A stretch of 64,000 bases of DNA, taken from the IMG/VR virus record IMGVR_UViG_3300012016_000003, positions 23,612 to 87,611 of that record; one strand, 5' to 3'. The notes beneath the pieces were generated by a model. That model worked only from the letters and a program-made list of their open reading frames with translations, made no database searches and was not told where the DNA came from. Below, piece after piece: positions 11,399-61,596 of the stretch. The stretch's first letter is position 1. Each line of letters starts with the position of its first letter. Position numbers and translations under genes: made by a program. This stretch comes from a virus. Taxonomy: Duplodnaviria; Caudoviricetes.

Positions 11399-11495
11399 TG
11401 GGAATAGTTCGGAGTTGCAAACCGAATGACAAGAGGTAAGTCAACACCTCTTTCCCGCTTTTTTCATCGTTGACATCATTATAAACAAAGTTGAC
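11399..11495 (+). ncRNA. Structured 5' leader (three-way junction with loop-pairing partners)
   Basis: P1 GGGA/TCCC, P2 TTCGG/CCGAA, P3 AAGAGGT/ACCTCTT; covaries with the copy at 47410. Confidence 0.6.
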
Positions 11496-11955
11496 AATGA
11501 CAAACGAGGAATTTATTGAGTTTATAAAACTCAAAGGCGAGAATTGGAAACCAGTTGAAGGATGGGAAGGGTGGTATTCTATATCTTCTTTTGGTCGTGT
11601 TGTTTCCTTGGAAAGAACAATACAATTAAAGAATGGAAAGAATTATCACATAAAACAAAAGCTACTAAAGCCTAATAAGACTATTCACAATGGAATATGG
11701 TATAATTATATATGCTTTCGCAAAAGTTGCAAAAAGTATGTATATGGAATACATAGGCTTGTTGCTGTTGCTTTTATCCCCAACCCAAATAATTACCCTG
11801 AAATTGACCATATAGATAGAAATGGGCTAAACAACCACATAAACAACCTACGATGGTGCAATCGCACTATGAACATGAGCAATAAAAACACAAAGCAAGC
11901 AGTAATTAATGCTCAACGTAAAAGGCGGCTGGCTGAATCTCTTGCCAATCAGTAA
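11491..11955 (+). mobile_element. NUMOD4-HNH homing endonuclease gene, antisense within the module
   Basis: ENWKPVEGWEGWYSISSFGRV (NUMOD4) and IHRLVA...DHIDRNGLNNHINNLRW (HNH_3). Confidence 0.88.
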
Positions 11956-27900: not shown

Positions 27901-30103
27901 CCATGTGGTAGCCGCTTCCAAGTTCGCCACTTGAAAAGTTGTCACTACCAAAGCCATTCCTAAAGGTTGTTTCCTTGTCAAAGGTTATATAACCATAGGC
28001 AGTATCATTGTTTGTCTTTGAAAGTTTCTTTGCAAGTTCAGCCCATACATTCCTTGAATAGGTTTCACGGAGAATGGATATTACGGAAGAAAGCCTTTCA
28101 ACATCATCTACAACTTGCCCAATCTGGTTAAGGACAACCTCGATATTGTCGGTAAGTGTTATGTCATATTGTGGCAATACACCAGCACCATACTTGATAG
28201 TCAGTTGCTTTACATACAATTCAAGCGGTTGTGCCATGTTCCCAAATGCAAAGTGAACAATGGCATTAGGCTTTATTTGTGAAAGTATGTAAGTATGGGT
28301 TGCCAAGAAATACTCGTCAAACTTCAACGGATAGTCATAGTAATGCACATTGTTTTCAAGCATATATGACTTTGCAGCATCATCAAGTGCTTGCTCAGCA
28401 CCCGTGATGTATTCCACTGGCAAGGATATGCCAAGTACCACAAACTCATCGCCTTGCGTTGGAACTTGGTACACATTAGGCATTAGAGTGCCGAATGTTT
28501 CATTGTCCTTTTGAACTATAAGGCTTATTTGTGTCTGGCTGCTATCGGGATATTTCTCCCCATCCCTTACATGACCATCCCCACTAGTGGTGTGGATAAC
28601 TGGGTCGAACACACCATCGGAATTGTAAAAGTTTTTCTTATAGTCCTCCCAATCCACTTGAACATTGAACGTACAACCTATGCAAGCACCTGAACGCATA
28701 TTAATGCTCATCTGCTCCGTTATGGATGCACAAGCATAAATATCGAATGATAACAAAGGCAAATCCACCCTAAAGTAGCTTTGCAAGTAGTTCCCGTCAT
28801 CATCCATTGTGTCATCCCAAGCATCTGCTGGAGTAAGGTCTGCATTCAAAGGAACTGCACCTGCAATCTCCACACCACTGCCACTTGTATTCATTTCGGG
28901 CTTGATGTCCTCAAACTGGTGTATCTCATAGGAAGGTGCGGTTGTGTCTATGGCATTAGGGTATGGGTATTGCTCCGTAGGAACTGCATCGTAATAGTCT
29001 ATGATTTCCCCATTAGGGTTGTAGTTCGGGTTCAATGGGTTTACCTTTCTATCCACTGTTTCCCTATATACCGTAGGCATAAGGGTAGACCTTGTGAAAG
29101 GGTGCTTGATAAGCCTTACCTTTCTACCACCTACAATGCCATCGTAGATAGGATAGGAAACCGCTTGAACGCTTTTCCCATTAACGGTAATGGTTTGTAC
29201 CCCACTTGCATTATTAAGCGTGTAGTCCCATTCTTGGTTGCCTTGCCAAACAATTTGTGGATAGCCGTAAGGAATGTTACTTTCACTTCCATATCCACTT
29301 ATTCTTGTAACTATCTTGTTGTTCCTAGGTGTCCTAGAATTGTTCTTCAAGCCAACCCCTTTGCCCATCCTAAAGATGTAAGGCGTTGACTCATCCTCTT
29401 GTGTGTGGATTTCATTGCTAGGCAATCCAAGGACAACCTTAAACCTCTTGCCATCTGCATACCCTTGTTCGCCATTGCCTATAGCATCTATGACATAAGG
29501 AATCTCCCAAGTGTCATACCAAGTCTTCAAGGCATCTGCAATGGTGTTCTTGCTGAATGTAAGCACACCGCTCAACTGGGTGTCCTTATCCGTAGGAAAC
29601 CTTGAACTTTTTTCCACCATCCATTGCGTTCCTTGGAGGTTCTTGTTCAGCTTTGCTATATAGCCGTCAGGGTAGCCAATCCAAGAAAATTCCTTGTCTT
29701 GTGACAAGAACCTTTCCTCATTCTCCGTTACGGCTACATCAGTGAAAGGCAAGTTACCCAAGGCATACATGGGGTGGTAGAACACAAAGGAGTATTTTGT
29801 CATGCCCTTTAGTTCGGAATTGTCCGAAACCATACCCTCACGAACTATGGTAGGCGGGCTTACAAGAACATACCTCACGGCATCCTCATTCTCATCCTCT
29901 GGGTTTCTCTTGTAGATGATGTATTCCTTCATCGTCACATCAAGGGTGTTGTCCTTGTAGTACACATCGCCAGTAATCTTGTCACCAAGCGACATGACAA
30001 CACTATCCACAACGGCTTTCCTCAAGACAAGCCCGTGGAATGATGTGCCATCCTCATTGTATATCGGGAATGTTATGTTTCTGCCTAATTTCTCTTCAGC
30101 CAT
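24956..30103 (-). CDS. Tail tip / baseplate hub protein with internal repeats
   Basis: KNNSRTPRNNKIVTRISGYGSESNIPYGYP phage tail motif. Likely start is ATG30103, just after a promoter. Confidence 0.72.
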   Translation of the reverse strand: MAEEKLGRNITFPIYNEDGTSFHGLVLRKAVVDSVVMSLGDKITGDVYYKDNTLDVTMKEYIIYKRNPEDENEDAVRYVLVSPPTIVREGMVSDNSELKGMTKYSFVFYHPMYALGNLPFTDVAVTENEERFLSQDKEFSWIGYPDGYIAKLNKNLQGTQWMVEKSSRFPTDKDTQLSGVLTFSKNTIADALKTWYDTWEIPYVIDAIGNGEQGYADGKRFKVVLGLPSNEIHTQEDESTPYIFRMGKGVGLKNNSRTPRNNKIVTRISGYGSESNIPYGYPQIVWQGNQEWDYTLNNASGVQTITVNGKSVQAVSYPIYDGIVGGRKVRLIKHPFTRSTLMPTVYRETVDRKVNPLNPNYNPNGEIIDYYDAVPTEQYPYPNAIDTTAPSYEIHQFEDIKPEMNTSGSGVEIAGAVPLNADLTPADAWDDTMDDDGNYLQSYFRVDLPLLSFDIYACASITEQMSINMRSGACIGCTFNVQVDWEDYKKNFYNSDGVFDPVIHTTSGDGHVRDGEKYPDSSQTQISLIVQKDNETFGTLMPNVYQVPTQGDEFVVLGISLPVEYITGAEQALDDAAKSYMLENNVHYYDYPLKFDEYFLATHTYILSQIKPNAIVHFAFGNMAQPLELYVKQLTIKYGAGVLPQYDITLTDNIEVVLNQIGQVVDDVERLSSVISILRETYSRNVWAELAKKLSKTNNDTAYGYITFDKETTFRNGFGSDNFSSGELGSGYHMGKYGNTNDSYLEIDRLMVRKMAYFIELAIKRLDHVGGSIGVSPADLTISNVEVLDDVYRCYVDLTDGHSTININDWQVGDLARCQTFNVNQATYYWRAVDNVDYQNGYVDLSIEDCDAGSGIPKRGDVLVVVGNKTDATRQNFIEISSTGSSSPSIKIYHGINDYSLVDKDATSFEYDPTTGRMKMVVYGDMYVGDRLQTNYIKYDQDGGLNIRANHFDFRHTGKDGQVSYKTIDEVIEEIASQSDGSFLVWRSETYGEPSADSEPESEWTTDEVRDEHVGDIYLSADGLAWEYKYNPVSGYFWQEVSDQYLIESLRLVREKARCFAGTYGTDTPTSGDYSKNDLWVKATYQNSYTNDLLVCIRNGSWDSFNIADWALAANYSTQIQNALTAINTFKTEVQRQVDGKADSYYQADDPSEGWTEPSEHVGDLWYNTNDKTSSVWNGEEWVESSVDLTPFTQKYDRKASIFYGTPTVPYNAHDFWILDDTVKIDYQDGSKTYTAGTILVSLATRTDRFYDTDWVDILKYTDGKALQVFIENTYTPFVQEISEQLDGVAESFVTTSDADPSLAWTTPELKANHKGDIWVNEDTGLSYYWNGEKWIQSSISLEELTDKTDGKATIFIAKPENKRTNADGEIIDDGYLYRKNDLWILSADTTLNGTLYEKGTIMVATTSNNGSTFNEAHWAKKDCYTNGMSDGDKQVFREAGFDWDAREFHFYADKFFFRNRNTTNPKDIAIIQEDADGNGYIRTDMIKASELITQTVIATDVNGRVLSKYNGNGNGTVVYYYPDGTKMKEDVFIYNSSGVITGMRTYYYNPDGSVAWYITETGVITNTLAYYWESLGSKGVVVVSSATAYSTLANTVSNGQWATRVPTTSARQISVFHADSTNPSTIRQYDGLTCYGNYENESPTDSTVAANHVTGYVAYETTVQTDARFVNSSGQMRKGYHFGFYNDGYCDAPDAYFACIDGTVWDNESEEQLA

Positions 30104-30483
30104 CTTGTAAGTTTGATAAATACAAAGATAATACAAAGGATTGAAAGTAACAAGGAAAACTTGTAGATTTTGGGAACTCTTGTAACCTCCTTCACATTTT
30201 CCTTATATTCCACAACAATGCTGTCACGCCAGCAAGTGTCATGCCTTTCAACCACACGGTCACGCCACCTTGTCTTTTCTACATATTTAGTCCTCCATAT
30301 TGTGTCGCCCTTTGCAAGAACCTCCAAATATATACTATCCCTTGTGTTGTTTATCAAGGTGTCATGTATGGTGTTCGTTATATAGCGGTTTACATCTCGG
30401 TCACGATACTCAATCCTTGTCCTTGTGGCACAAGCGGCCAGTAAGAACAAGGAAAGAAAAGCTATAATGGTGGCATTCCTCAT
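30085..30483 (-). CDS. Lipoprotein, spanin-like lysis protein
   Basis: Signal peptide with lipobox LAAC, a C-terminal TM, and position after the lysin. Confidence 0.65.
   Translation of the reverse strand: MRNATIIAFLSLFLLAACATRTRIEYRDRDVNRYITNTIHDTLINNTRDSIYLEVLAKGDTIWRTKYVEKTRWRDRVVERHDTCWRDSIVVEYKENVKEVTRVPKIYKFSLLLSILCIIFVFIKLTRWLKRN
30123..30130 (-). promoter_or_regulatory. Bacteroidota -7 promoter element
   Basis: TATCTTTG on the minus strand, about 20 nt upstream of ATG30103. Confidence 0.55.
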
Positions 30484-30492
30484 GGTATCATA

Positions 30493-30645
30493 TTATTTTA
30501 TGGTTATATGCACACTTTCCCCACGTTTCTTTGCTGGGGTGAAGTATTTGTTCATTAGCATTATGAATGTGGTCTTTGATTCAGTAACCATGCCCTTTGT
30601 CGTGTTTTTTCCAACCAACAAACAACCTTCGGTATCGTCAATAAC
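30493..30645 (-). CDS. DUF5675-type lysin, 3' segment (VIDDTEGCLLVG...ITIK)
   Basis: Carries the DTEGC(L/I)LVG half of the HxGN-x3-DTxGC motif; lies within ORF 30493..30747. Confidence 0.8.
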   Translation of the reverse strand, partial: VIDDTEGCLLVGKNTTKGMVTESKTTFIMLMNKYFTPAKKRGESVHITIK

Positions 30646-31632
30646 CCTATTTATAGTATAGCTGCCATATTGTGCTTTGATACTATACTTTCCTCTTGGC
30701 AGTGAGATGCCATATTTACTTTCTAGTTCACTTCTGCTTATTTTCATTACGCATCTTTTTTATTTCACATATTGTTTTACCTAGAACAAGCATTTCATGG
30801 TATGAAAAGTTGTTACCTCTTGCGACATTGCAATCATAACAACAAACAACCACATTGTCTTTTGTATGACCTCTCGAATTGTCAATTCTATCAAGCCCAA
30901 GTCTTGTAGTGTCGCCACAATAATGGCATTTCCCATTCATTATTTTTTCTTGTAGCCATTGATTGTCTATATCACACTCAAACCCTTTCTTTTTGTCTTT
31001 AAGCCTATATTGAGAAAGCATTTTTGAAACTTTGTCTTTCCTTTTTTGCTCGCTAGACAATTCATTTATGTCGGTTATAACACCTGCAAGGTTCTTATTC
31101 TTTCCGAAAAGAATTTGTTCTATGGTATAGTTCTTTCCCTTAAAGAATCTTTGCCTTACGCCTTGGTAGTTTAAGTCATATTGCTCACACCATTCTACAA
31201 GGGTTTTAGTTTCTCCATTATAGGTTAGCTTAGCAAGCTTGCTAATGTTTTCAAGACCTTTCTCCACCCATTCACAATTATCCTTGCTATATGGCTTTGA
31301 TTTGTCCTTTCTGCATAGAATCATACCTTTAGACCAACCTGCGGAAGTGTCCTTGTCAAAGTTTTCAAAAAACTTCCACTCTTCGGGAAAACCTATAGAC
31401 TGCCCTTTCTTTGTATTAACAACGGAACGCCAAGAGTTGTATTTACTCCCTTTGCTCCTATCATAGCCTTTATAGTCAGCCCTTGATTTCCAAGATAAAG
31501 ACAAGGCTTGTGATTTCGTTAATCCTTCATACTTTTTTGCTGTCATATAACTTCTACATATTCTTCCGTTTGTAACAATGGCTTTCCGCTTGGAATGTTT
31601 AACCTTTTGTAAAATTCCTCATATCCAGCCCT
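30646..31632 (-). mobile_element. Intron-like insertion (984-987 nt) inside the lysin gene
   Basis: Separates the two halves of the lysin motif; AATAGGG direct repeat at both ends; contains an HNH ORF. Confidence 0.75.
30728..31546 (-). CDS. HNH (His-Me finger) homing endonuclease
   Basis: CHYCG...LDRIDNSRGHTKDNVVVCCYDCN at the C-terminus, a degenerate HNH-like N-terminal part, and an LTYNGETKTLVEW helix. Confidence 0.82.
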   Translation of the reverse strand: MTAKKYEGLTKSQALSLSWKSRADYKGYDRSKGSKYNSWRSVVNTKKGQSIGFPEEWKFFENFDKDTSAGWSKGMILCRKDKSKPYSKDNCEWVEKGLENISKLAKLTYNGETKTLVEWCEQYDLNYQGVRQRFFKGKNYTIEQILFGKNKNLAGVITDINELSSEQKRKDKVSKMLSQYRLKDKKKGFECDIDNQWLQEKIMNGKCHYCGDTTRLGLDRIDNSRGHTKDNVVVCCYDCNVARGNNFSYHEMLVLGKTICEIKKMRNENKQK

Positions 31633-31923
31633 ATTCCCGATATGGATTCTTACACCCTTGAAGTTAGGTACATTGTTTATCAAAGGCACACACCCCTTGC
31701 AAACCGTCTTGTAGGGTTCTTTTGCACCGAATCTTTGTGAATAGTTGTTCAACAAGACTTCATATCTGCCGCAAGGAATGGCAGTCTTTCCAGCCACTTT
31801 TGAACCACCGAAGTAAATCCTATCGTAGTCCTCAAGTACATCGCAAACATAGATGTTGTCTATATATAGCCTACCTATAGTATAAGTAGGCTTTCTTGCT
31901 ATACGTTTAAGTACGAGTTCCAT
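31633..31923 (-). CDS. DUF5675-type lysin, 5' segment (MELVLKRIA...RIHIGN)
   Basis: TIGRLYID, CDVLED, TAIPCGRY, VPNFKGVRIHIGN motifs; the frame reads on to TGA at 31543. Confidence 0.82.
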
Positions 31924-31925
31924 TC

Positions 31926-32297
31926 CTATTCCTCCTTTCCGTGTTTCTTGCTTTTGTTCGTCAAAGACTCAATCCTTCTTCCTTGTCTAGCCATCTCTTT
32001 CCTTATGTCAAGTATGGTGTTTTCAAGTTCGTTTATCTTTAGCCTAAGTTCACGGTTTTCCTTTCTTAGTTCCTCATTTTCCCTTCTTAGCAAGTCCCTA
32101 TCATTCCTTATGAACTCACAAGACTTTTCAAGGTCTGCTATGGTGTTTTGGTACACGTGTTGTTGTGCCTCCCACCCTACTGCTTCGGCTTGTGTCGCCT
32201 CACCCTCATTCTTACGTTTGTAGGCACGATAGGTAAAAAGCCATCCAGTGCCTAGAATGAGTGTTGCCATTGAAAGTATAAATTCCAACCATCCCAT
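31926..32297 (-). CDS. Holin-like protein (N-terminal TM plus coiled coil)
   Basis: Single TM followed by heptad repeats; first gene of the lysis cassette. Confidence 0.55.
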   Translation of the reverse strand: MGWLEFILSMATLILGTGWLFTYRAYKRKNEGEATQAEAVGWEAQQHVYQNTIADLEKSCEFIRNDRDLLRRENEELRKENRELRLKINELENTILDIRKEMARQGRRIESLTNKSKKHGKEE

Positions 32298-47376: not shown

Positions 47377-47408
47377 TTTGGAAACATTTAGTATTTTGTG
47401 TATCTTTG
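47377..47408 (+). promoter_or_regulatory. Bacteroidota promoter of the second HNH cassette
   Basis: TTTG (47377-80), 20-nt spacer, TATCTTTG (47401-08). Confidence 0.75.
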
Positions 47409-47409
47409 T

Positions 47410-47500
47410 AATAGGAATAGTCGGGTCTGGCCACCCGATGATAAGGGCGAAGCTTGCCCCGCCCTTTCCTATTTACATAGGGCAAGAATTAGAAAGGGTA
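47410..47500 (+). ncRNA. Structured 5' leader (three-way junction), same type as 11399
   Basis: P1 AATAGGA/TCCTATT, P2 TCGGG/CCCGA, P3 AAGGGCG/CGCCCTT; loop CTTGCCC pairs with downstream GGGCAAG. Confidence 0.65.
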
Positions 47501-47506
47501 AGTTTT

Positions 47507-48322
47507 ATGAAAAAGAAGACTTTAGAAGAAGTTTTGTTGTTATTCAACAAAACATGGGGGGATAGGTATAATTATAGACACATCACCCCACAAGCGTTTA
47601 AAGGGGCTTCCAAAGAAGTGCCAATAGAGTGTAACAAGCATGGCATTTTTTGGATGACACCATGCGACCATTACCACCATCATGGATGTCCTGATTGTGA
47701 CCATGAACGCAAAAAAGAACCAAAGTTTTATGAACGCAAACTACTGTTCGGTGTTGGGAAATTGGATGTTGATTATTCTATTAACACAAATGAACTTAGC
47801 AGAGAAGCTTATCGAGATTGGTATGAAATGCTAAAAAGGTGTTATAATGAGAACAATTTAAAACTATACCCAACGTACCGTGATTGTTATGTTTGTGAAG
47901 AATGGAAATGCTTCTCAAACTTTAAAAAATGGTTTGAAGATAATCACATTAGCGGATATTGCCTTGACAAAGATATACTCATAAAAGGGAATAAGAAATA
48001 TGCACCAGACACTTGTTGTTATATACCACAAGAGATAAACAAACTTTTATTAAACAAAAAAATGTGTAGGGGTAAATACCCTATTGGTGTTTACAAATCA
48101 ATAAGGAATGGTAAATATATATATTATTCTGCAAAATTTCATAAAAATGGAGAAGATGTAAATCTTGGCTATTACCCTACGCCACAAGATGCCTTTCAAG
48201 CATACAAGGCAGCAAAAGAATCACACATTCAAGATGTTGCAACTCTTTATTTTGAACAAGGTAAAATCACTAAAAAAGTATATAATGCGCTTTTAAATTA
48301 TGAAGTAGAAATAACGGACTAA
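47507..48322 (+). mobile_element. Free-standing HNH-type endonuclease with N-terminal zinc domain and C-terminal AP2-like domain
   Basis: IECNKHG...GCPDC, LDKDILIKGNKKYAPDTCCYIPQEIN and LGYYPTPQDAFQAY; likely start ATG47507. Confidence 0.75.
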
Positions 48323-56773: not shown

Positions 56774-57358
56774 CTATTTGGCTTGGTCTATAAGCTTGTA
56801 GAACTCACTTCTTGTATCAGGATTTTCCTTAAACACACCAGACAAATGTGCCACTGTCATTGAACCATTATTCTTGACACCACGCATTGTCTTGCATAAG
56901 TGAGTGCCACGCATTACAATAGCCATGCCTTCAACTTGACCATCTAAGGCTTCAGTGAGCATCTTTACAATATCATGTGCCAGTCGTTCTTGCAGTTGTA
57001 ACCTTGCAGCACAATAATTGACAACTCTTGCTATCTTTGAGATACCAAGGATTCTTCCATCCTTTTTAGGTATATATGCAAAGTAGTACTTGCCAAAGAA
57101 AGGCATCATGTGATGTTCACACATGGAATAATAGTCGCCAGTATCAAAGACCATATCAGTAGACTCCATGTCGTTTGCAAATGTGGTTATCTTTGGCTTT
57201 TGTGATGGGTCATAACCACGGAAAATCTCGGCATACATACGCGCTATTCTATCAGGTGTGCCCACAAGACCTTCTCTATCTGGGTCTTCACCTATGGCAG
57301 TCAACAACATTCTTACCGCACGTTCAATATCTTTTGAGTTTGTAGTGACAGTTTCCAT
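56774..57358 (-). CDS. folE: GTP cyclohydrolase I
   Basis: REGLVGTPDRIARM, SMCEHHMMPF, GISKIAR, HLCKTMRGV. Confidence 0.95.
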   Translation of the reverse strand: METVTTNSKDIERAVRMLLTAIGEDPDREGLVGTPDRIARMYAEIFRGYDPSQKPKITTFANDMESTDMVFDTGDYYSMCEHHMMPFFGKYYFAYIPKKDGRILGISKIARVVNYCAARLQLQERLAHDIVKMLTEALDGQVEGMAIVMRGTHLCKTMRGVKNNGSMTVAHLSGVFKENPDTRSEFYKLIDQAK

Positions 57359-57897
57359 TTTGGGTTTTGTTTTATAAATTCAACACATTTATTTATAATC
57401 TCTTTGTTCTTGTATTCATCTCCAGTATCACAAGGTTGGATGTAATAATGTTTGGCAACTATACCAAAATCCGCGACTTTATGAACACCATCAAACACAA
57501 CCTTAACCTCACTAGCCTTATCTACTTTAGGCTCACCAGTAATACCAACAAATGGCTTTTTGGGACTTACTGTCAGCCAGTCCAAGTTAAAAGGAGGGTT
57601 GTGTGTCCCATTGCTCTCCATTGCCACATAATACCCATTCGAGTGTAACAAGTCAATTAGGTGTGTGCAGTCCTGAACAGTAGGTTCACCACCAGTTATG
57701 ACTACAAATTTACATTCATTGGAACATGACTTAACCTCGCAGATGATTTCATTATCGGTCATTTCATCATATCTTGAAAAGTCAGTGTCACAAAATGGAC
57801 ACTTGAGGTTGCAAATGGACAAGCGAATAAAAATGGCTGGAGTACCCGTATGATACCCTTCCCCTTGGATAGAGTAAAAAATTTCATTGACTTTCAT
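57313..57897 (-). CDS. queE: 7-carboxy-7-deazaguanine synthase (radical SAM)
   Basis: EIFYSIQGEG, CNLKCPFCD, ITGGEP, WLTVSPK. Confidence 0.93.
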   Translation of the reverse strand: MKVNEIFYSIQGEGYHTGTPAIFIRLSICNLKCPFCDTDFSRYDEMTDNEIICEVKSCSNECKFVVITGGEPTVQDCTHLIDLLHSNGYYVAMESNGTHNPPFNLDWLTVSPKKPFVGITGEPKVDKASEVKVVFDGVHKVADFGIVAKHYYIQPCDTGDEYKNKEIINKCVEFIKQNPKWKLSLQTQKILNVR

Positions 57898-57899
57898 AA

Positions 57900-58232
57900 C
57901 TAATCCTCCTCGTATATAGCTATGTTACCTTCACTTTCTTGCACACTTGCCTTGTAACATTGAGGTATCTGGTCAACAATCCACCTGGCAATGTTTTCGG
58001 CAGTAGGATTAAATGGAAGCAGCTCATTGAGGTTGCCATGGTCAAGATAACCATGAATCTTATCCTTTATATGTTTGAAATCTATGACCATACCATCTTG
58101 GTTCAATTCCTTTGCCTTGCAATATATAGTAATGTGCCAATTATGACCATGAAGGTTTTCACACTTACTCGTATAACTTAGATTGAGGTGATGACACGCT
58201 GCAATCTCTAATTTTTTGGAAATGTAATACAT
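57900..58232 (-). CDS. queD: 6-carboxytetrahydropterin synthase
   Basis: HHL...CENLHGHNW, IDF, LDH, PTAENIA. Confidence 0.93.
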   Translation of the reverse strand: MYYISKKLEIAACHHLNLSYTSKCENLHGHNWHITIYCKAKELNQDGMVIDFKHIKDKIHGYLDHGNLNELLPFNPTAENIARWIVDQIPQCYKASVQESEGNIAIYEED

Positions 58233-58651
58233 AGTTGTCTATCCTTTTTGTTTCTTAAAAATTTTAACTGTTTGCCAATTCCCATGCCTTCCATCGGAAT
58301 GGTATATTTTTTAAAATATCTTACAAGATATTTCCTATATACTGACCCTGCCAGAATCACAAATTCATCATTTGCAAAATCGCACCCTTTGTCTTGCAGG
58401 CTTTTCAACACACCTTTTGACCATTTTTCTTTTTCTTGTTGGCTTTTGGTAAGAAGGGTTTCATTATATGGCTCTATTTCTTCATTCTCTTCCAACAGTC
58501 CATATTTGGCAGAAAGAATGTAGATTTTGTCAGGGTTAAGGGATTTTGCATAAGAATACATTCCCTTAAATAGGCTTGAAACATACATATCCTTTGCCTT
58601 GCTTGCAATTCCAATTTTTTGTTTTACACAAGAAATCAATACTATCTTCAT
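58208..58651 (-). CDS. DUF6884-like protein
   Basis: LISCVKQK...AKDMYVSSLF...ILSAKYGLL...IEPYNETL; family recalled. Confidence 0.75.
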   Translation of the reverse strand: MKIVLISCVKQKIGIASKAKDMYVSSLFKGMYSYAKSLNPDKIYILSAKYGLLEENEEIEPYNETLLTKSQQEKEKWSKGVLKSLQDKGCDFANDEFVILAGSVYRKYLVRYFKKYTIPMEGMGIGKQLKFLRNKKDRQLCITFPKN

Positions 58652-59301
58652 GACTCATACTTTGTTGTGTCTATTATACCTGCATCATGTAATGCCTCTT
58701 TACGCTCAATACAAGTTCCACACTTTCCACAATGTCTTTCACCACCTTTGTAACAACTATATGTCTTTGAATAATCCAAGCCCAGATTCTTTCCTATCAT
58801 GGCTATTTGAGTCTTGGTGATTGAAGTATATGGTGCATATATTTTGACATTTTTATATGTGCCATACTCCATTGCCTTTGACATTGATTCAATAAATGCC
58901 GGACGACAATCTGGATAGATTGAATGGTCGCCTGAATGATTGGCAATGAGAACCTTTCCAAGTCCATTGCTTTCAGCTATGCCGCATGCTATGCTCAACA
59001 TTATCCCATTCCTAAATGGAACAACTGTAGATTTCATGTTTTCATCCTGATAGTGTCCATCTGGAACTGCTTCTGCCCCATCCAAAAGTGATGATTTGAA
59101 GTACTTTCCCATAAAATCAAGTGGGATGACAATATGTGCAATGTCAAGCTGTCGACAATGGTATTTTGCATATTCCAATTCCCTTTTGTTGTGATTGCTC
59201 CCATAGTCAAATGTGATGGCAAGAGCTATTTCATCTTTCTTGTCATATAGAAGTGTAACACTATCCATGCCACCACTTAAAATAATTACTGAATCTTTCA
59301 T
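58648..59301 (-). CDS. queC: 7-cyano-7-deazaguanine synthase
   Basis: SGGMDS, VPFRN, YPDCR, CGKCGTC. Confidence 0.95.
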   Translation of the reverse strand: MKDSVIILSGGMDSVTLLYDKKDEIALAITFDYGSNHNKRELEYAKYHCRQLDIAHIVIPLDFMGKYFKSSLLDGAEAVPDGHYQDENMKSTVVPFRNGIMLSIACGIAESNGLGKVLIANHSGDHSIYPDCRPAFIESMSKAMEYGTYKNVKIYAPYTSITKTQIAMIGKNLGLDYSKTYSCYKGGERHCGKCGTCIERKEALHDAGIIDTTKYES

Positions 59302-59316
59302 AATAATAAAAATTTA

Positions 59317-60189
59317 TTAGTTATACATCCATTTAAAATCTTGTTGACCACATATCTTTTGAGTCTTATGTTTCCACCATTCCAGATTTACACACATTGC
59401 ATTGGTTGGGATTTCCTTTCCACTCTTAATTGATTCATACCTTTCGCAACCTACCATTCTTTTTACTTTCTGCGTGTCAAGATTCTCAGTCCTATAAAAA
59501 TTGTCTATCTCTCCAAACCGTCTGGCAGACAACCATGTTATCGAATCACAACTTGTGCAGAAATTAAATTTTTTGATGTGTGCAAAGTCAGTAAAACCCA
59601 GCAGATGAATGTCTATGTCGGGGTTCTTGTTCTTTATGTATCTTGCAATAGGCAAGGCATAGTCCGACTTTCCCGCACTCCTTAGTTCTGGGAGTCCTAT
59701 TGCAATGTAACTGGAAAACTCAATCATCCTATCTAGTCCACTAAGCCCATCTTCCAAGTGCCACACGTTGATAATACGGTTATGGGGAAGGTCTGCCCTC
59801 ATTCTCTCTCTCAGCTTCCATGTTTCCTCTACACCTATAATTGCCTGGGCATCAACCTCCACACAAGTTATAGGGTTATTATGACCCAATGTCCACTCTA
59901 TGAGTGCATCATACCACTTAAATACAAGTTCAGGCTTTACTTTCCCTTTATATTTCCCAAATAACATACTGAACAATCCGCTATCCTGAATGACATGCTT
60001 CATGTTTGGTGCAAGAAAGTTTGGGACTTCATAGGAATCCTTATCTTTGGATATTTTCCTCTCTATAAACGGGAATGCTGAATATAGAGTGTAGTTTATG
60101 CCCATTTCATTAAGTATTCTTGCATCACTTATATTTTCACTTCCAGCGAAGTGGATTTTTATATTCTGCGGCAAATGTAACTGTTCCAT
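59317..60189 (-). CDS. DpdA/TGT-fold deazaguanine DNA transglycosylase-like protein, copy B
   Basis: QDSGLF, IHLLG and SCDSITW motifs inside the preQ0 cluster. Confidence 0.7.
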   Translation of the reverse strand: MEQLHLPQNIKIHFAGSENISDARILNEMGINYTLYSAFPFIERKISKDKDSYEVPNFLAPNMKHVIQDSGLFSMLFGKYKGKVKPELVFKWYDALIEWTLGHNNPITCVEVDAQAIIGVEETWKLRERMRADLPHNRIINVWHLEDGLSGLDRMIEFSSYIAIGLPELRSAGKSDYALPIARYIKNKNPDIDIHLLGFTDFAHIKKFNFCTSCDSITWLSARRFGEIDNFYRTENLDTQKVKRMVGCERYESIKSGKEIPTNAMCVNLEWWKHKTQKICGQQDFKWMYN

Positions 60190-60210
60190 ATATTATATAT
60201 TAAATAACTG

Positions 60211-61089
60211 TCAGTTTTTATAATCTTGATTCCCGGCATTTTTTTCATACAGCCTCTTTTCTTTCTCTATTGATGCGCAGGCTATCCTATTATTCTCTTC
60301 ATGGTCATAACTGTCACATATATTATTCCAGTGTTCAACTCCTATCATTTTGGCAATTTTGGGAGTGTCAAGGAATGAAACCTTTTCATATAACAAGTGC
60401 CCATATCTTATAGGATGAATCCAAAATGAACTGTCACTGCTTGTGCAACAATATCTGCATTTCCTTATCATATTGCTGTCAGTACAACCGAGCAAGTGAA
60501 TGTCAATCTGCGGCTTCTTCCTTTTGATATAATTTGCAAGAGGTGATACATAACCAAAAAATCCAAGACCCTTCAATTCTGGGACTCCTATGGCTATATA
60601 ATCTGCAAATTCTATAAGTCTATCCAACCCATACTGACCATCTTCCAAGTGCCAGACATTGATGATTCTATTGTCAGGCAGGTCATTCACCATCCTTTCC
60701 CTTAGATTCCAGACCTCATCGACTCCAATTATGGATTGTGCATCAACTTCCACACAAGTAACACCCTGTCCATGTCCAATAGTCCAATCAACAAGTGCAT
60801 CATACCACTTATAAACATCTTTCTTCTCAGCCTTCCCCTTAAAACTTCCAAATAGAAGGCTATATAAACCACTGTCTTGAATGACATGGTTAAAATTTTG
60901 GAACAAGAAAGATGGGACATCACTCATGTCTTGCTTGTTTTTCTTCCCATAGACTTTTTTAAAGATAAAAGGGAATGCAGAATATAGTGTATAGGAAATC
61001 CCCATTTCTTTCATGATAAGCGCATGGTGTCTATCTTCTGCACCCGCAAAATGAACCTTTATATTATCTGGCAAGTGAAGCTGTTCCAT
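60211..61089 (-). CDS. DpdA/TGT-fold deazaguanine DNA transglycosylase-like protein, copy A
   Basis: QDSGLY, IHLLG and SSDSSFW motifs; clear paralog of copy B. Confidence 0.7.
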   Translation of the reverse strand: MEQLHLPDNIKVHFAGAEDRHHALIMKEMGISYTLYSAFPFIFKKVYGKKNKQDMSDVPSFLFQNFNHVIQDSGLYSLLFGSFKGKAEKKDVYKWYDALVDWTIGHGQGVTCVEVDAQSIIGVDEVWNLRERMVNDLPDNRIINVWHLEDGQYGLDRLIEFADYIAIGVPELKGLGFFGYVSPLANYIKRKKPQIDIHLLGCTDSNMIRKCRYCCTSSDSSFWIHPIRYGHLLYEKVSFLDTPKIAKMIGVEHWNNICDSYDHEENNRIACASIEKEKRLYEKNAGNQDYKN

Positions 61090-61596
61090 CTATTCAAACA
61101 ATGACAACTGTTCATTTGATACAAATTCCTTATTACCAGACTTCTTAACCTTTGGTACAACATCATCCTTAAATAAGTCCTCAATTTTCAGTTCTTTCAC
61201 AAGGCATTCATGACCTCCCCACTTTCTTGGGTCAAAAGACAGTCTTTTTTGCATTGCCAAACACAATGTATCAGCATCCCAATCCAAGTTCTTCTCTTGG
61301 GCAAGGTTATCAACCAGTGCAAGTTCCAAGCCCTTTGTTTCATCTGCATCAACATCAGTCCTCTTGACTATGATTAATGTATCTCCATCAGTTTCAATGG
61401 TCAAAATCCTTTTCCCCAACTCCTTGGCGGCCTTGTAGACATCATTCCCTGATATTATAGTTCCATTTTTGTCTGCCAATATAGAACGGCCACACCCTAA
61501 TTCTTGCAAGGAATGTTTTATCAGGTCATAACCAAACCTTGTTCCCTTGTTGAATCTATTGTTATTTTGTTCCACTTTCAAATAAGAATACCCCAA
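61090..61596 (-). CDS. ParB-like N-terminal domain protein
   Basis: IKHSLQELGCGRSILADKNGTIISGN...ELALVDN; the TTG start is uncertain. Confidence 0.65.
   Translation of the reverse strand: MGYSYLKVEQNNNRFNKGTRFGYDLIKHSLQELGCGRSILADKNGTIISGNDVYKAAKELGKRILTIETDGDTLIIVKRTDVDADETKGLELALVDNLAQEKNLDWDADTLCLAMQKRLSFDPRKWGGHECLVKELKIEDLFKDDVVPKVKKSGNKEFVSNEQLSLFE

Follow-up and report, generated by a model that had tools for sequence, protein, structure and literature searches.

Homing endonucleases are thought to persist in essential genes because an intron or intein shelters them, and the few cases of genes in pieces have so far been put down to a fortunate break between domains. HNH introns interrupt the lysin genes of Staphylococcus phage K-like and Streptococcus thermophilus phages, and the multi-subunit lysin PlyC of streptococcal phage C1 is reportedly encoded in the gene order plyCB, lil, plyCA. 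The NrdA of Aeromonas phage Aeh1 is encoded by genes in pieces, with the HNH gene mobE lying between them (Friedrich et al. 2007; as covered in PMC2677866). Fractured genes, found mainly in phages, carry the halves of a split intein around a homing endonuclease gene (HEG) (Dassa et al. 2009, PMC2677866), and Aeromonas phage 25 and its relatives have a split gp43 DNA polymerase (Petrov and Karam, as presented in PMC2677866).

Here we describe a locus in a 64,000-nt stretch of Caudoviricetes DNA (the window), in which a DUF5675 (YkuD/C82-like) lysin gene is broken after the motif HxGN by a 987-nt insert. The evidence points to the only recognisable cell-wall enzyme of this gut phage having been repaired by two conserved peptides that arrive with the insert, not by RNA splicing. 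The features of the locus are as follows, the insert being referred to as the cassette and its two added peptides as the tail (N-extension) and the head (C-extension).

31926..32297, minus strand: upstream gene for a 123-aa holin-like or Rz-like protein with a coiled coil and an N-terminal transmembrane (TM) segment (weak PHROG matches)
31923..31543, minus strand: N piece ORF, 126 aa
31633..31923, minus strand: N piece core, DUF5675 residues 1-97, ending ...VRIHIGN (PF18925 positions 2-77)
31543..31632, minus strand: N-extension, cassette-encoded, 29 codons plus a TGA that overlaps the HNH ATG (ATGA)
31546..30728, minus strand: HNH ORF, putative homing-endonuclease gene, 272 aa, its ATG within the ATGA that ends the N piece (PHROG and profile matches)
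30747..30493, minus strand: C piece ORF, 84 aa, starting at an ATG 20 nt within the 3' end of the HNH ORF
30646..30747, minus strand: C-extension, cassette-encoded, 34 codons from its own ATG, starting 20 nt inside the HNH 3' end
30493..30645, minus strand: C piece core, DUF5675 residues 98-147 (VIDDTEGCLLVG...) plus stop (PF18925 positions 77-111)
30583..30645, minus strand: probable co-conversion tract, on the 3' side of the insert (mismatches against the empty allele L090)
30085..30483, minus strand: downstream gene for a 132-aa protein that has a lipobox (LLAAC) and, at its C terminus, a TM segment (read from the translation)

Judged from the ORF layout, this is a case of genes in pieces: the original order is kept, a HEG lies between the pieces, each piece starts and stops on its own codons, and relatives carry intact alleles. 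As in Aeh1 nrdA, a free-standing HNH gene lies between the enzyme halves with order and orientation kept, relatives carry uninterrupted alleles, and the halves would be made as separate chains. Unlike in Aeh1, the host gene is an endolysin gene, the break falls between two catalytic residues, and the cassette adds to both ends conserved peptides that are under selection and travel together with the nuclease gene; for NrdA, experiments have shown that the pieces assemble, whereas here we infer it. The split gp43 is likewise an essential enzyme encoded as two cistrons, and the DNA inserted between them can contain a homing endonuclease gene, but its enzyme and nuclease families differ from those at this locus. 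PlyC resembles the present case in being a lysin of several subunits, with an HNH-like gene lying between its two genes; its subunits, however, are separate domains for binding and catalysis, whereas here a catalytic domain of ~147 aa is cut through its active site.

The break can be placed precisely. The N piece matches PF18925 (Pfam) over positions 2-77 (E 7e-17, 61.7 bits, against a gathering cut-off of 26.7) and the C piece over positions 77-111 (E 3e-5, 24.3 bits, which alone is slightly below that cut-off), so that the two matches abut exactly. The codon of the catalytic His94 of the N piece lies at 31644..31642 and that of the catalytic Cys42 of the C piece at 30624..30622, on the other side of the insert. 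Deletion of the 987 nt at 31632..30646 gives an in-frame 147-aa product that aligns without gaps to the intact 147-aa orthologues of five syntenic phages (L003-L007), and the intact relatives carry PF18925. The N piece core is 99% identical to one intact protein, P0122. H94 and C105 are invariant across 35 intact sequences, G41 and C42 are invariant among the aligned C pieces, and the catalytic His and Cys are invariant throughout the split pieces. An earlier note, made from the letters of this DNA, had described an endolysin split inside its catalytic motif on the minus strand, with a 147-aa product after removal of 987 nt, His and Cys on opposite sides of the insert, an ATGA overlap and a C-piece ATG at 30747 inside the HNH end; the ORF and codon coordinates bear out each of these points, and the alignment to intact homologues that it had proposed shows the product to be collinear with the L003-L007 orthologues and the gene to be uninterrupted in L090.

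The same note had named a DUF5675 / L,D-transpeptidase-like motif, with which both the PF18925 matches and structural comparison agree. The AF2 model of P0122 has a pLDDT of 96.3, and its 16 top structural matches in VIA-align are all peptidoglycan enzymes of the L,D-transpeptidase fold (Z 9.2-6.7, the next match being at Z 2.0), among them Pgp2 (6xj7; Z 9.2, rmsd 2.6, 106 aligned), Tlde1a (Z 8.4), DpaA (Z 7.5) and LdtMt2/Ldt_fm (Z ~7). Foldseek against the PDB returned nothing at E<=0.001 (E-values 0.18-1.3), and the fold assignment is therefore based on the VIA-align comparison. On these models the lysin is predicted to have a YkuD / L,D-transpeptidase-like (MEROPS C82-like) fold with a conserved His...Cys pair. 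A lysin role of DUF5675 has been proposed from structure comparison (bioRxiv 10.64898/2026.04.11.717860), and no published activity assay for any DUF5675 protein was found in the literature. When the N piece was modelled alone, the core fold was kept (pLDDT ~88-92) and the 29-aa tail had a low pLDDT of 35-47, which suggests that the tail does not dock in cis.

The surroundings of the gene are those of a lysis cassette, as the earlier note had read them: the lysin gene lies between a gene for a TM/coiled-coil protein and one for a lipoprotein with a C-terminal TM segment. The weak PHROG matches of the upstream 123-aa protein are to holin and Rz-like spanin families. Another phage contig (L026) has a GH24 lysozyme (PF00959, E 4e-40) in the same slot, after a TM/coiled-coil protein that is 59% identical to the 123-aa protein here. 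The downstream 132-aa protein has no Pfam or PHROG family match; its lipobox and TM segment make it a candidate unimolecular spanin, and its position is kept in L004-L007, L086 and L090. Among 121 other ORFs of >=60 aa in the complete 87.6-kb record (CheckV 100%), no lysin family was detected with Pfam, and six-frame searches for PF00959, PF01510 and PF08291 returned nothing; as far as can be tested, the claim that no other lysin is visible thus holds. The positional evidence argues for a putative endolysin role of the split DUF5675 gene. Many ORFs of the genome are without annotation, and a lysin of an unrecognised type among them is possible.

All 987 nt of the insert are covered by the three overlapping ORFs. 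The 272-aa ORF matches PHROG HNH and endonuclease VII families (E 8e-20 to 4e-14), and a profile built from 31 homologues matches PacI (3ldy, E 7e-8) and the HNH protein 4h9d (E 6e-5); against Pfam PF01844 alone the match is weak (E 0.34). The columns CxxC...D..N..H..N..CxxC(N) are invariant among the homologues. With the motif present, the ORF is identified by sequence as an HNH homing endonuclease with putative cleavage activity. Both flanks of the nuclease ORF encode conserved peptides. The tail (consensus YAGYETFYKK..I.K.K..L.TEEYVEVV) is kept in 15 N pieces, with A99, E102, K106 and K114 invariant, and the head (consensus MKIS+.EL..KYGIDLP.GKY.I...G..Y.I.TV) is kept in nine aligned C pieces; both are absent from the empty allele L090. 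Mean pairwise differences at codon positions 1/2/3 are 0.37/0.30/0.56 for the tail and 0.27/0.29/0.64 for the head, so that the third position varies ~1.5-1.9x and 2.2-2.4x as much as positions 1 and 2, respectively. The pN/pS ratios, which are rough because pS is near saturation, are 0.50 for the tail, 0.36 for the head, 0.27 for the HNH ORF, 0.40 for the N piece core and 0.39 for the C piece core. Both added peptides are under protein-level selection, with constraint like that on the enzyme cores. No Bacteroidota-type promoter motif (TAnnTTTG with an upstream TTTG) was found within the insert, which is weakly consistent with co-transcription.

The possibility that the peptides arose by duplication, the tail mimicking the C-terminal helix/strand of the family and the head its N-terminal strands, was examined with hhalign. 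For the tail this found no support (E 0.28, with the alignment on a different region), and the match of the head to the IPxGxY strand of the DUF5675 family (E 0.015 over 11 columns) is only a hint.

Filled and empty sites of the cassette were both recovered. L090, a phage contig 97-98% identical to the window, has an uninterrupted lysin gene and represents the empty site; homology between the two stops at 31634/31633 and picks up at 30636. In the 3' flank there are 21 mismatches in 46 nt (L090 2809-2854) followed by near identity, against 0 mismatches in the final ~98 nt of the 5' flank before the insert. A second pair, L025 (filled) and L003 (empty), is asymmetric in the same way, its tract covering ~78 nt of the 3' flank against ~18 nt of the 5' flank. 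Co-conversion of the flanks, combined with the presence of filled and empty alleles in near-identical genomes, is the signature of homing, and on the comparison with L090 the insertion into this phage lineage is recent. A 7-nt direct repeat, AATAGGG, occurs at both insert ends in the window, and deletion between its copies would take out 984 nt and add one residue; the repeat is taken as chance because it is missing in L025, L086, L087 and L088.

The arrangement is not confined to one phage. The three-ORF layout, with the ATGA overlap and the C-piece start inside the HNH end, recurs in L025, L086, L087, L088, L089, L028, L036, L030 and L037, among which HNH identity is 45-75%. These HNH relatives were found by an alignment-based scan of viral contigs; a single-sequence search found none. 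N and C pieces occur together in all eight loci in which both sides are visible, and across phages the split pieces are only 31-79% identical. A profile search recovered stand-alone C pieces with the head in at least 39 clusters at 50% identity, counting those that start at profile position 1, or ~50 with probable extras. In addition, three single-chain proteins, P0262 (on four contigs), P0365 (on five) and P0319, lack the HNH and carry tail and head as an in-frame segment that lies after HxGN and before the Cys motif, which is DTxGC except in P0319 (DIRGC). An ESM Atlas search with the tail-plus-head region of P0262 was uninformative (best score 0.78), and a PDB sequence search with P0262 gave spurious TPR matches only.

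The earlier note had held that function must be restored either by RNA splicing or by genes in pieces. The conserved added peptides favour the latter, whereas intron hallmarks were missing for the former, and we regard it as very unlikely that the 987-nt insert is a self-splicing intron (of group I or a similar type) which carries the HNH ORF and whose spliced mRNA would yield the 147-aa lysin. Removal is exactly in frame and restores collinearity, and group I introns that carry HNH genes are familiar from lysin genes; the lysin introns of Staphylococcus phage K (lysK) and S. thermophilus phages likewise place an HNH insert at a conserved catalytic-site sequence. Unlike those, however, this insert shows no ribozyme core, splice-site rules or non-coding sequence, and the flanks of its HNH ORF encode conserved peptides: the three ORFs, all under protein-level selection, leave no room for a non-coding core. 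Rfam gave no group I or group II match at E<=10 in the window and eight related loci, with covariance models that are less sensitive when a large ORF sits in a loop. RNAalifold left the 5' junction unpaired and found no structure beyond a 5-bp hairpin, fold z-scores were mostly -1.4 to +0.4 (one of ten at -2.8), and end-pairing duplex energies were no better than those of shuffles (z -0.6 to +0.6). Taken by itself, the window fits the splice-site rules, with T as the last exon base and G as the last base of the insert. Across eight loci the last exon base is T in four and C in four, and the last base of the insert is T, C, C and A in L025, L086, L087 and L088, so in most relatives the rules (U at -1, terminal G) are broken. 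The HNH-less derivatives, moreover, retain the supposedly intronic peptides in frame. Splicing at the protein level fares still worse. Tail and head could be a very small, atypical split intein that joins the halves by protein trans-splicing, and the layout of host N part plus added peptide, free-standing HEG, and added peptide plus host C part is that of fractured genes, for which related loci without the HEG also exist; the residue after GN is, in addition, often Cys, Ser or Thr in intact alleles. The peptides, however, total 63-65 aa, half the intein size and against ~125-135 aa for a Hint fold, match none of the Hint or intein families of Pfam at E<=1, and are devoid of splicing motifs: where an intein would have a conserved Cys or Ser, the tail begins with R, Y, D, K or F, no terminal Asn or His-Asn is conserved (the junction residue is R in the window), and neither peptide has a conserved His, Cys or Asn. 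The outcome is likely a non-covalent complex, unlike the ligated protein of fractured genes, and we consider trans-splicing extremely improbable.

The remaining alternatives concern the fate of the pieces themselves. The insertion may have inactivated the lysin gene, leaving the pieces as remnants while an unrecognised enzyme encoded elsewhere carries out lysis; the separation of His from Cys, the numerous unannotated ORFs in the genome and the recent date of the insertion in this lineage all fit such a loss. Against it, both pieces are open and keep their catalytic residues under like constraint across phages that are 31-79% identical, the arrangement has diversified into dozens of clusters, the lysin families searched for were not found elsewhere in the complete genome, and a dead gene would not explain purifying selection on the cassette peptides; we judge inactivation unlikely. 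It is also conceivable, if somewhat less credible, that each piece folds alone, the added peptide replacing the missing half, and that the pieces act separately or only one of them matters. The weak resemblance of the head to the IPxGxY strand would suit this, but the tail lacks similarity to the C-terminal helix/strand and, in the model of the N piece by itself, has very low confidence, the two catalytic residues would still sit on separate chains, and the two pieces co-occur wherever both sides of a locus can be seen.

We therefore favour, as the probable explanation, an endolysin of two subunits, encoded by genes in pieces, in which cassette-carried peptides hold the halves together, with putative association and activity. 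A mobile cassette, in which 29 codons precede and 34 codons follow an HNH homing-endonuclease gene, would have homed into the DUF5675 endolysin gene between the His (HxGN) and the Cys (DTxGC), and the gene would remain unrepaired at the RNA level. Overlapping, translationally coupled ORFs would instead yield the N half with its 29-aa tail, the nuclease, and the C half with its 34-aa head. Tail and head may then bind each other as a docking module of ~65 aa, and the halves may reassemble into an active two-subunit YkuD-like peptidoglycan peptidase; the physical association of the pieces, their catalytic activity and the lysin role are what we infer from the features described above. More tentatively, and with the balance slightly against it at present, the cassette peptides could be a portable, self-associating docking domain of ~65 aa, a non-splicing counterpart of a split intein. 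Such a domain would have evolved with, or been captured by, the homing endonuclease, letting it enter an essential late gene at the catalytic centre while the phage survives; where the nuclease gene is later lost, the docking domain would remain as an in-frame insertion, as in P0262, P0365 and P0319.

For phage annotation, the ~126-aa and 84-aa fragments labelled 'hypothetical' or 'DUF5675' in many gut-phage genomes should be read jointly as one lysin. Although the break described here runs through the active site of an enzyme that has a single domain of 147 aa, the arrangement is widespread and has diversified. Should the peptides dock, the two small proteins would offer a simple system for studying split-enzyme reassembly, and a portable docking domain, if borne out, would provide a natural split-protein or compact heterodimerisation tag. 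If the peptides do form a docking module, harmlessness at the protein level would travel with the nuclease, and a portable docking domain would constitute a third route, beside introns and inteins, by which a homing endonuclease can become harmless to its host gene.

Three overlapping ORFs fill positions 31923..30493 on the minus strand of the window:

31923..31543, minus strand: N piece of the DUF5675 lysin, 126-aa ORF, overlapping the HNH ATG through its terminal ATGA
31546..30728, minus strand: HNH ORF, 272 aa, with its own ATG within the ATGA closing the 126-aa ORF
30747..30493, minus strand: C piece of the lysin, 84-aa ORF, with its ATG 20 nt inside the HNH 3′ end

Pfam DUF5675 positions 2-77 matched the 126-aa ORF and positions 77-111 the 84-aa ORF. 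Deletion of 31632..30646 (987 nt) yielded a 147-aa protein that aligned without gaps with the intact 147-aa proteins of five syntenic phages (L003-L007), whose gene order is portal, TM/coiled-coil protein, DUF5675, lipoprotein and tail fibre. ORF layout, Pfam halves and gapless alignment thus bear out in every detail the earlier note's description of a DUF5675 lysin split by an HNH insert, with overlapping ORFs and 987 nt removable in frame. The catalytic His and Cys were invariant across all split pieces. One C-piece lineage (L028:2237-2674, P0245, P0247, P0248, P0253) has a C-terminal extension of ~60 aa, Pro/Val-rich and ending in a hydrophobic segment, which may anchor the small subunit to the membrane or wall. 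In another split locus, the lysin is preceded, at a distance of a few hundred bases, by a tRNA gene (L036:672-742; Rfam 52.6 bits). In another phage, the DUF5675 gene at L009:2530-3100 (IMGVR_UViG_3300035520_000009) carries a TAG codon in frame, right at the x of DTxGC (...HVGNSASDT*GCLLVGKN...), and then stays in frame to its normal end; instead of being broken, this late gene may use a recoded TAG (code 15-like).

The full IMG/VR record, which includes the window, is 87,611 bp long and rated 100% complete. We called 124 ORFs of at least 60 aa on it. In a Pfam scan, the 121 that lie outside the split locus matched replication, recombination, methylase, 7-deazaguanine, portal, terminase and tape-measure families, and none matched lysozyme, amidase, M15, M23, CHAP, NlpC/P60 or transglycosylase. 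Six-frame searches for PF00959, PF01510 and PF08291 were negative. The predicted fold of an intact orthologue, P0122, reached pLDDT 96, and its 16 best structural matches were L,D-transpeptidase-fold peptidoglycan enzymes throughout (Pgp2, Z 9.2; Tlde1a, 8.4; DpaA, 7.5; LdtMt2/Ldt_fm, ~7), with the 17th dropping to Z 2.0 and with Foldseek E-values that are weak by themselves. A 2026 preprint independently classified DUF5675 as a "C82-like" lysin domain by structure comparison (bioRxiv 10.64898/2026.04.11.717860). In the related locus L026, a GH24 lysozyme occupies the DUF5675 slot, behind a 59%-identical TM/coiled-coil protein and ahead of an HNH homologue, and in L033 an M15 peptidase adjoins another HNH homologue. 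Given the genome-wide negatives, the structural matches, the preprint and these neighbours, "only recognisable endolysin" is a fair label for this putative lysin.

A Logan contig from a 97-98% identical phage (L090) carries the uninterrupted 147-aa gene. Homology to the window stops at 31634/31633 and restarts at 30636, with 997 bases in place of ten in L090. The 46 nt directly 3′ of the insert hold 21 mismatches, after which the two sequences are nearly identical; on the 5′ side, the final ~98 nt contain no mismatch. L025 and L003, again a filled and an empty allele, showed the same asymmetry, with divergence over ~78 nt 3′ and ~18 nt 5′ of the insert. By sequence comparison, this flank asymmetry is the signature of homing with co-conversion and marks the insert as a recently mobile cassette; it also suggests that the nuclease cuts 3′ of the insertion point and that the donor flank shields the filled allele from re-cleavage.

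The HNH homologues (177 proteins) occupy several positions relative to lysins: inside DUF5675 at the same site (window, L025, L086-L089, L028, L036, L030, L037), directly upstream of intact DUF5675 (L024, bajarodcaudo virus 1, PQ006092; L029), upstream with internal stops in both ORFs (L027), directly downstream of intact DUF5675 (L031, L032, L034, L035) and beside other lysins (L026, L033). In the last two, the homologue immediately follows the GH24 lysozyme (L026:1020-2316, 69% identical) or the M15 peptidase (L033:998-2325, 44% identical), so the nuclease family tracks lysis cassettes generally, beyond DUF5675. At L024:2384-3761 and in L029 it overlaps the intact gene from the upstream side, and part of its N-terminal extension may be a duplicate of the lysin 5′ end. 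At L037:1489-2315 the HNH ORF is broken into two frames, yet the N and C pieces on either side of it remain open and hardly differ from the L030 pieces. Either the nuclease is decaying beside a split lysin that is being maintained, or the assembly is in error. Additional HNH-type genes (window 11491-11955 and 47378-48322; one ORF in positions 1-23611 of the full record, ahead of the window) indicate that the phage hosts several homing-endonuclease-like genes; Pfam found NUMOD4/HNH_3 in one ORF of the middle ORF set and HNH_3 in the ORF ahead of the window. Elsewhere, matches to QueC, QueD-like PTPS, radical SAM (QueE-like), GTP cyclohydrolase I and DUF6884 at window 56774-61596 indicate a 7-deazaguanine DNA-modification cluster.

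Two repair routes had been proposed for the split gene, RNA splicing and a genes-in-pieces enzyme, and only the latter gained support. No group I or II intron matched in Rfam at E<=10 in the window and eight loci with the same insert. For the 5′ junction RNAalifold predicted 0 pairs, and for the joined junction alignment a lone 5-bp hairpin; single sequences gave fold z-scores that were mostly within noise (1 of 10 at -2.8), and the insert ends paired no better than shuffles. Half of the loci have C as the last exon base, and the window alone has G as the last insert base. Since all 987 nt are assigned to the three ORFs, no non-coding stretch is left for a ribozyme. The Rfam negatives, lack of a conserved fold, splice-base mismatch and full coding make an intron very unlikely. 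The genes-in-pieces route is favoured by the fused forms and by conservation, as protein, of two cassette-encoded peptides: a tail of 29 residues after HxGN closing the N piece (consensus YAGYETFYKK..I.K.K..L.TEEYVEVV) and a head of 34-36 residues before DDTxGC opening the C piece (MKIS+.EL..KYGIDLP.GKY.I...G..Y.I.TV). Both recur in phages whose HNH proteins are just 50-75% identical, with a shorter, divergent pair in the L030/L037 lineage. Mean pairwise differences by codon position were 0.37/0.30/0.56 for the tail and 0.27/0.29/0.64 for the head (five gap-free loci). Across six loci, pN/pS was 0.50 for the tail, 0.36 for the head, 0.40 and 0.39 for the two enzyme cores and 0.27 for HNH, so the added peptides are constrained as strongly as the enzyme itself. 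A C-piece profile searched against 1.84 billion representatives recovered at least 39 stand-alone C pieces with the head (~50 including probable extras); among the 120 clusters closest to the N piece, 13 were N pieces with the tail and 102 were intact.

Single-chain representatives without the HNH gene (P0262, 215 aa; P0365, 199 aa; P0319, 185 aa) carry tail and head in frame between HxGN and the Cys motif, which is DTxGC in the first two and DIRGC in P0319. P0262 and P0365 were each found on several phage-like contigs. Pfam DUF5675 matched on both sides, with no match in the intervening 51-61 residues. Either a split gene may have lost its nuclease gene, or an insertion domain may already have existed when a nuclease entered it; with both origins, the two peptides can lie together inside an enzyme that presumably works, between its halves, as a docking module requires and as would be senseless for intron sequence. 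The "fractured genes" of Dassa et al. (PMC2677866) have a layout equal to that of the split lysin. A split intein was rejected here: tail and head total 63-65 aa with no Hint match, and they lack a conserved N-terminal Cys/Ser, a terminal Asn or any conserved His. Each peptide might instead substitute structural elements of the absent half, of which there is a hint for the head but no support for the tail.

Under the docking reading, a single late transcript would bear three translationally coupled ORFs, and the lack of a Bacteroidota-type promoter motif within the insert is weakly consistent with this. Their products would be the tail-bearing N half, the nuclease and the head-bearing C half; tail and head would associate, bringing His94 to the Cys loop in a two-subunit YkuD-like endolysin. 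When the N piece was modelled alone, its core kept the fold (pLDDT ~90) and the tail was unplaced (35-47), which is weakly consistent with a peptide requiring a partner.

Genes broken by free-standing homing endonucleases (Aeh1 nrdA/mobE, gp43 splits) are already known, and so are fractured genes with split inteins (PMC2677866). Four points are new in comparison: the host gene is a putative endolysin whose two catalytic residues fall on opposite sides of the break, the element bears conserved non-intein peptides at both broken ends, fused derivatives retain these peptides, and the arrangement has radiated widely among gut-type phages.
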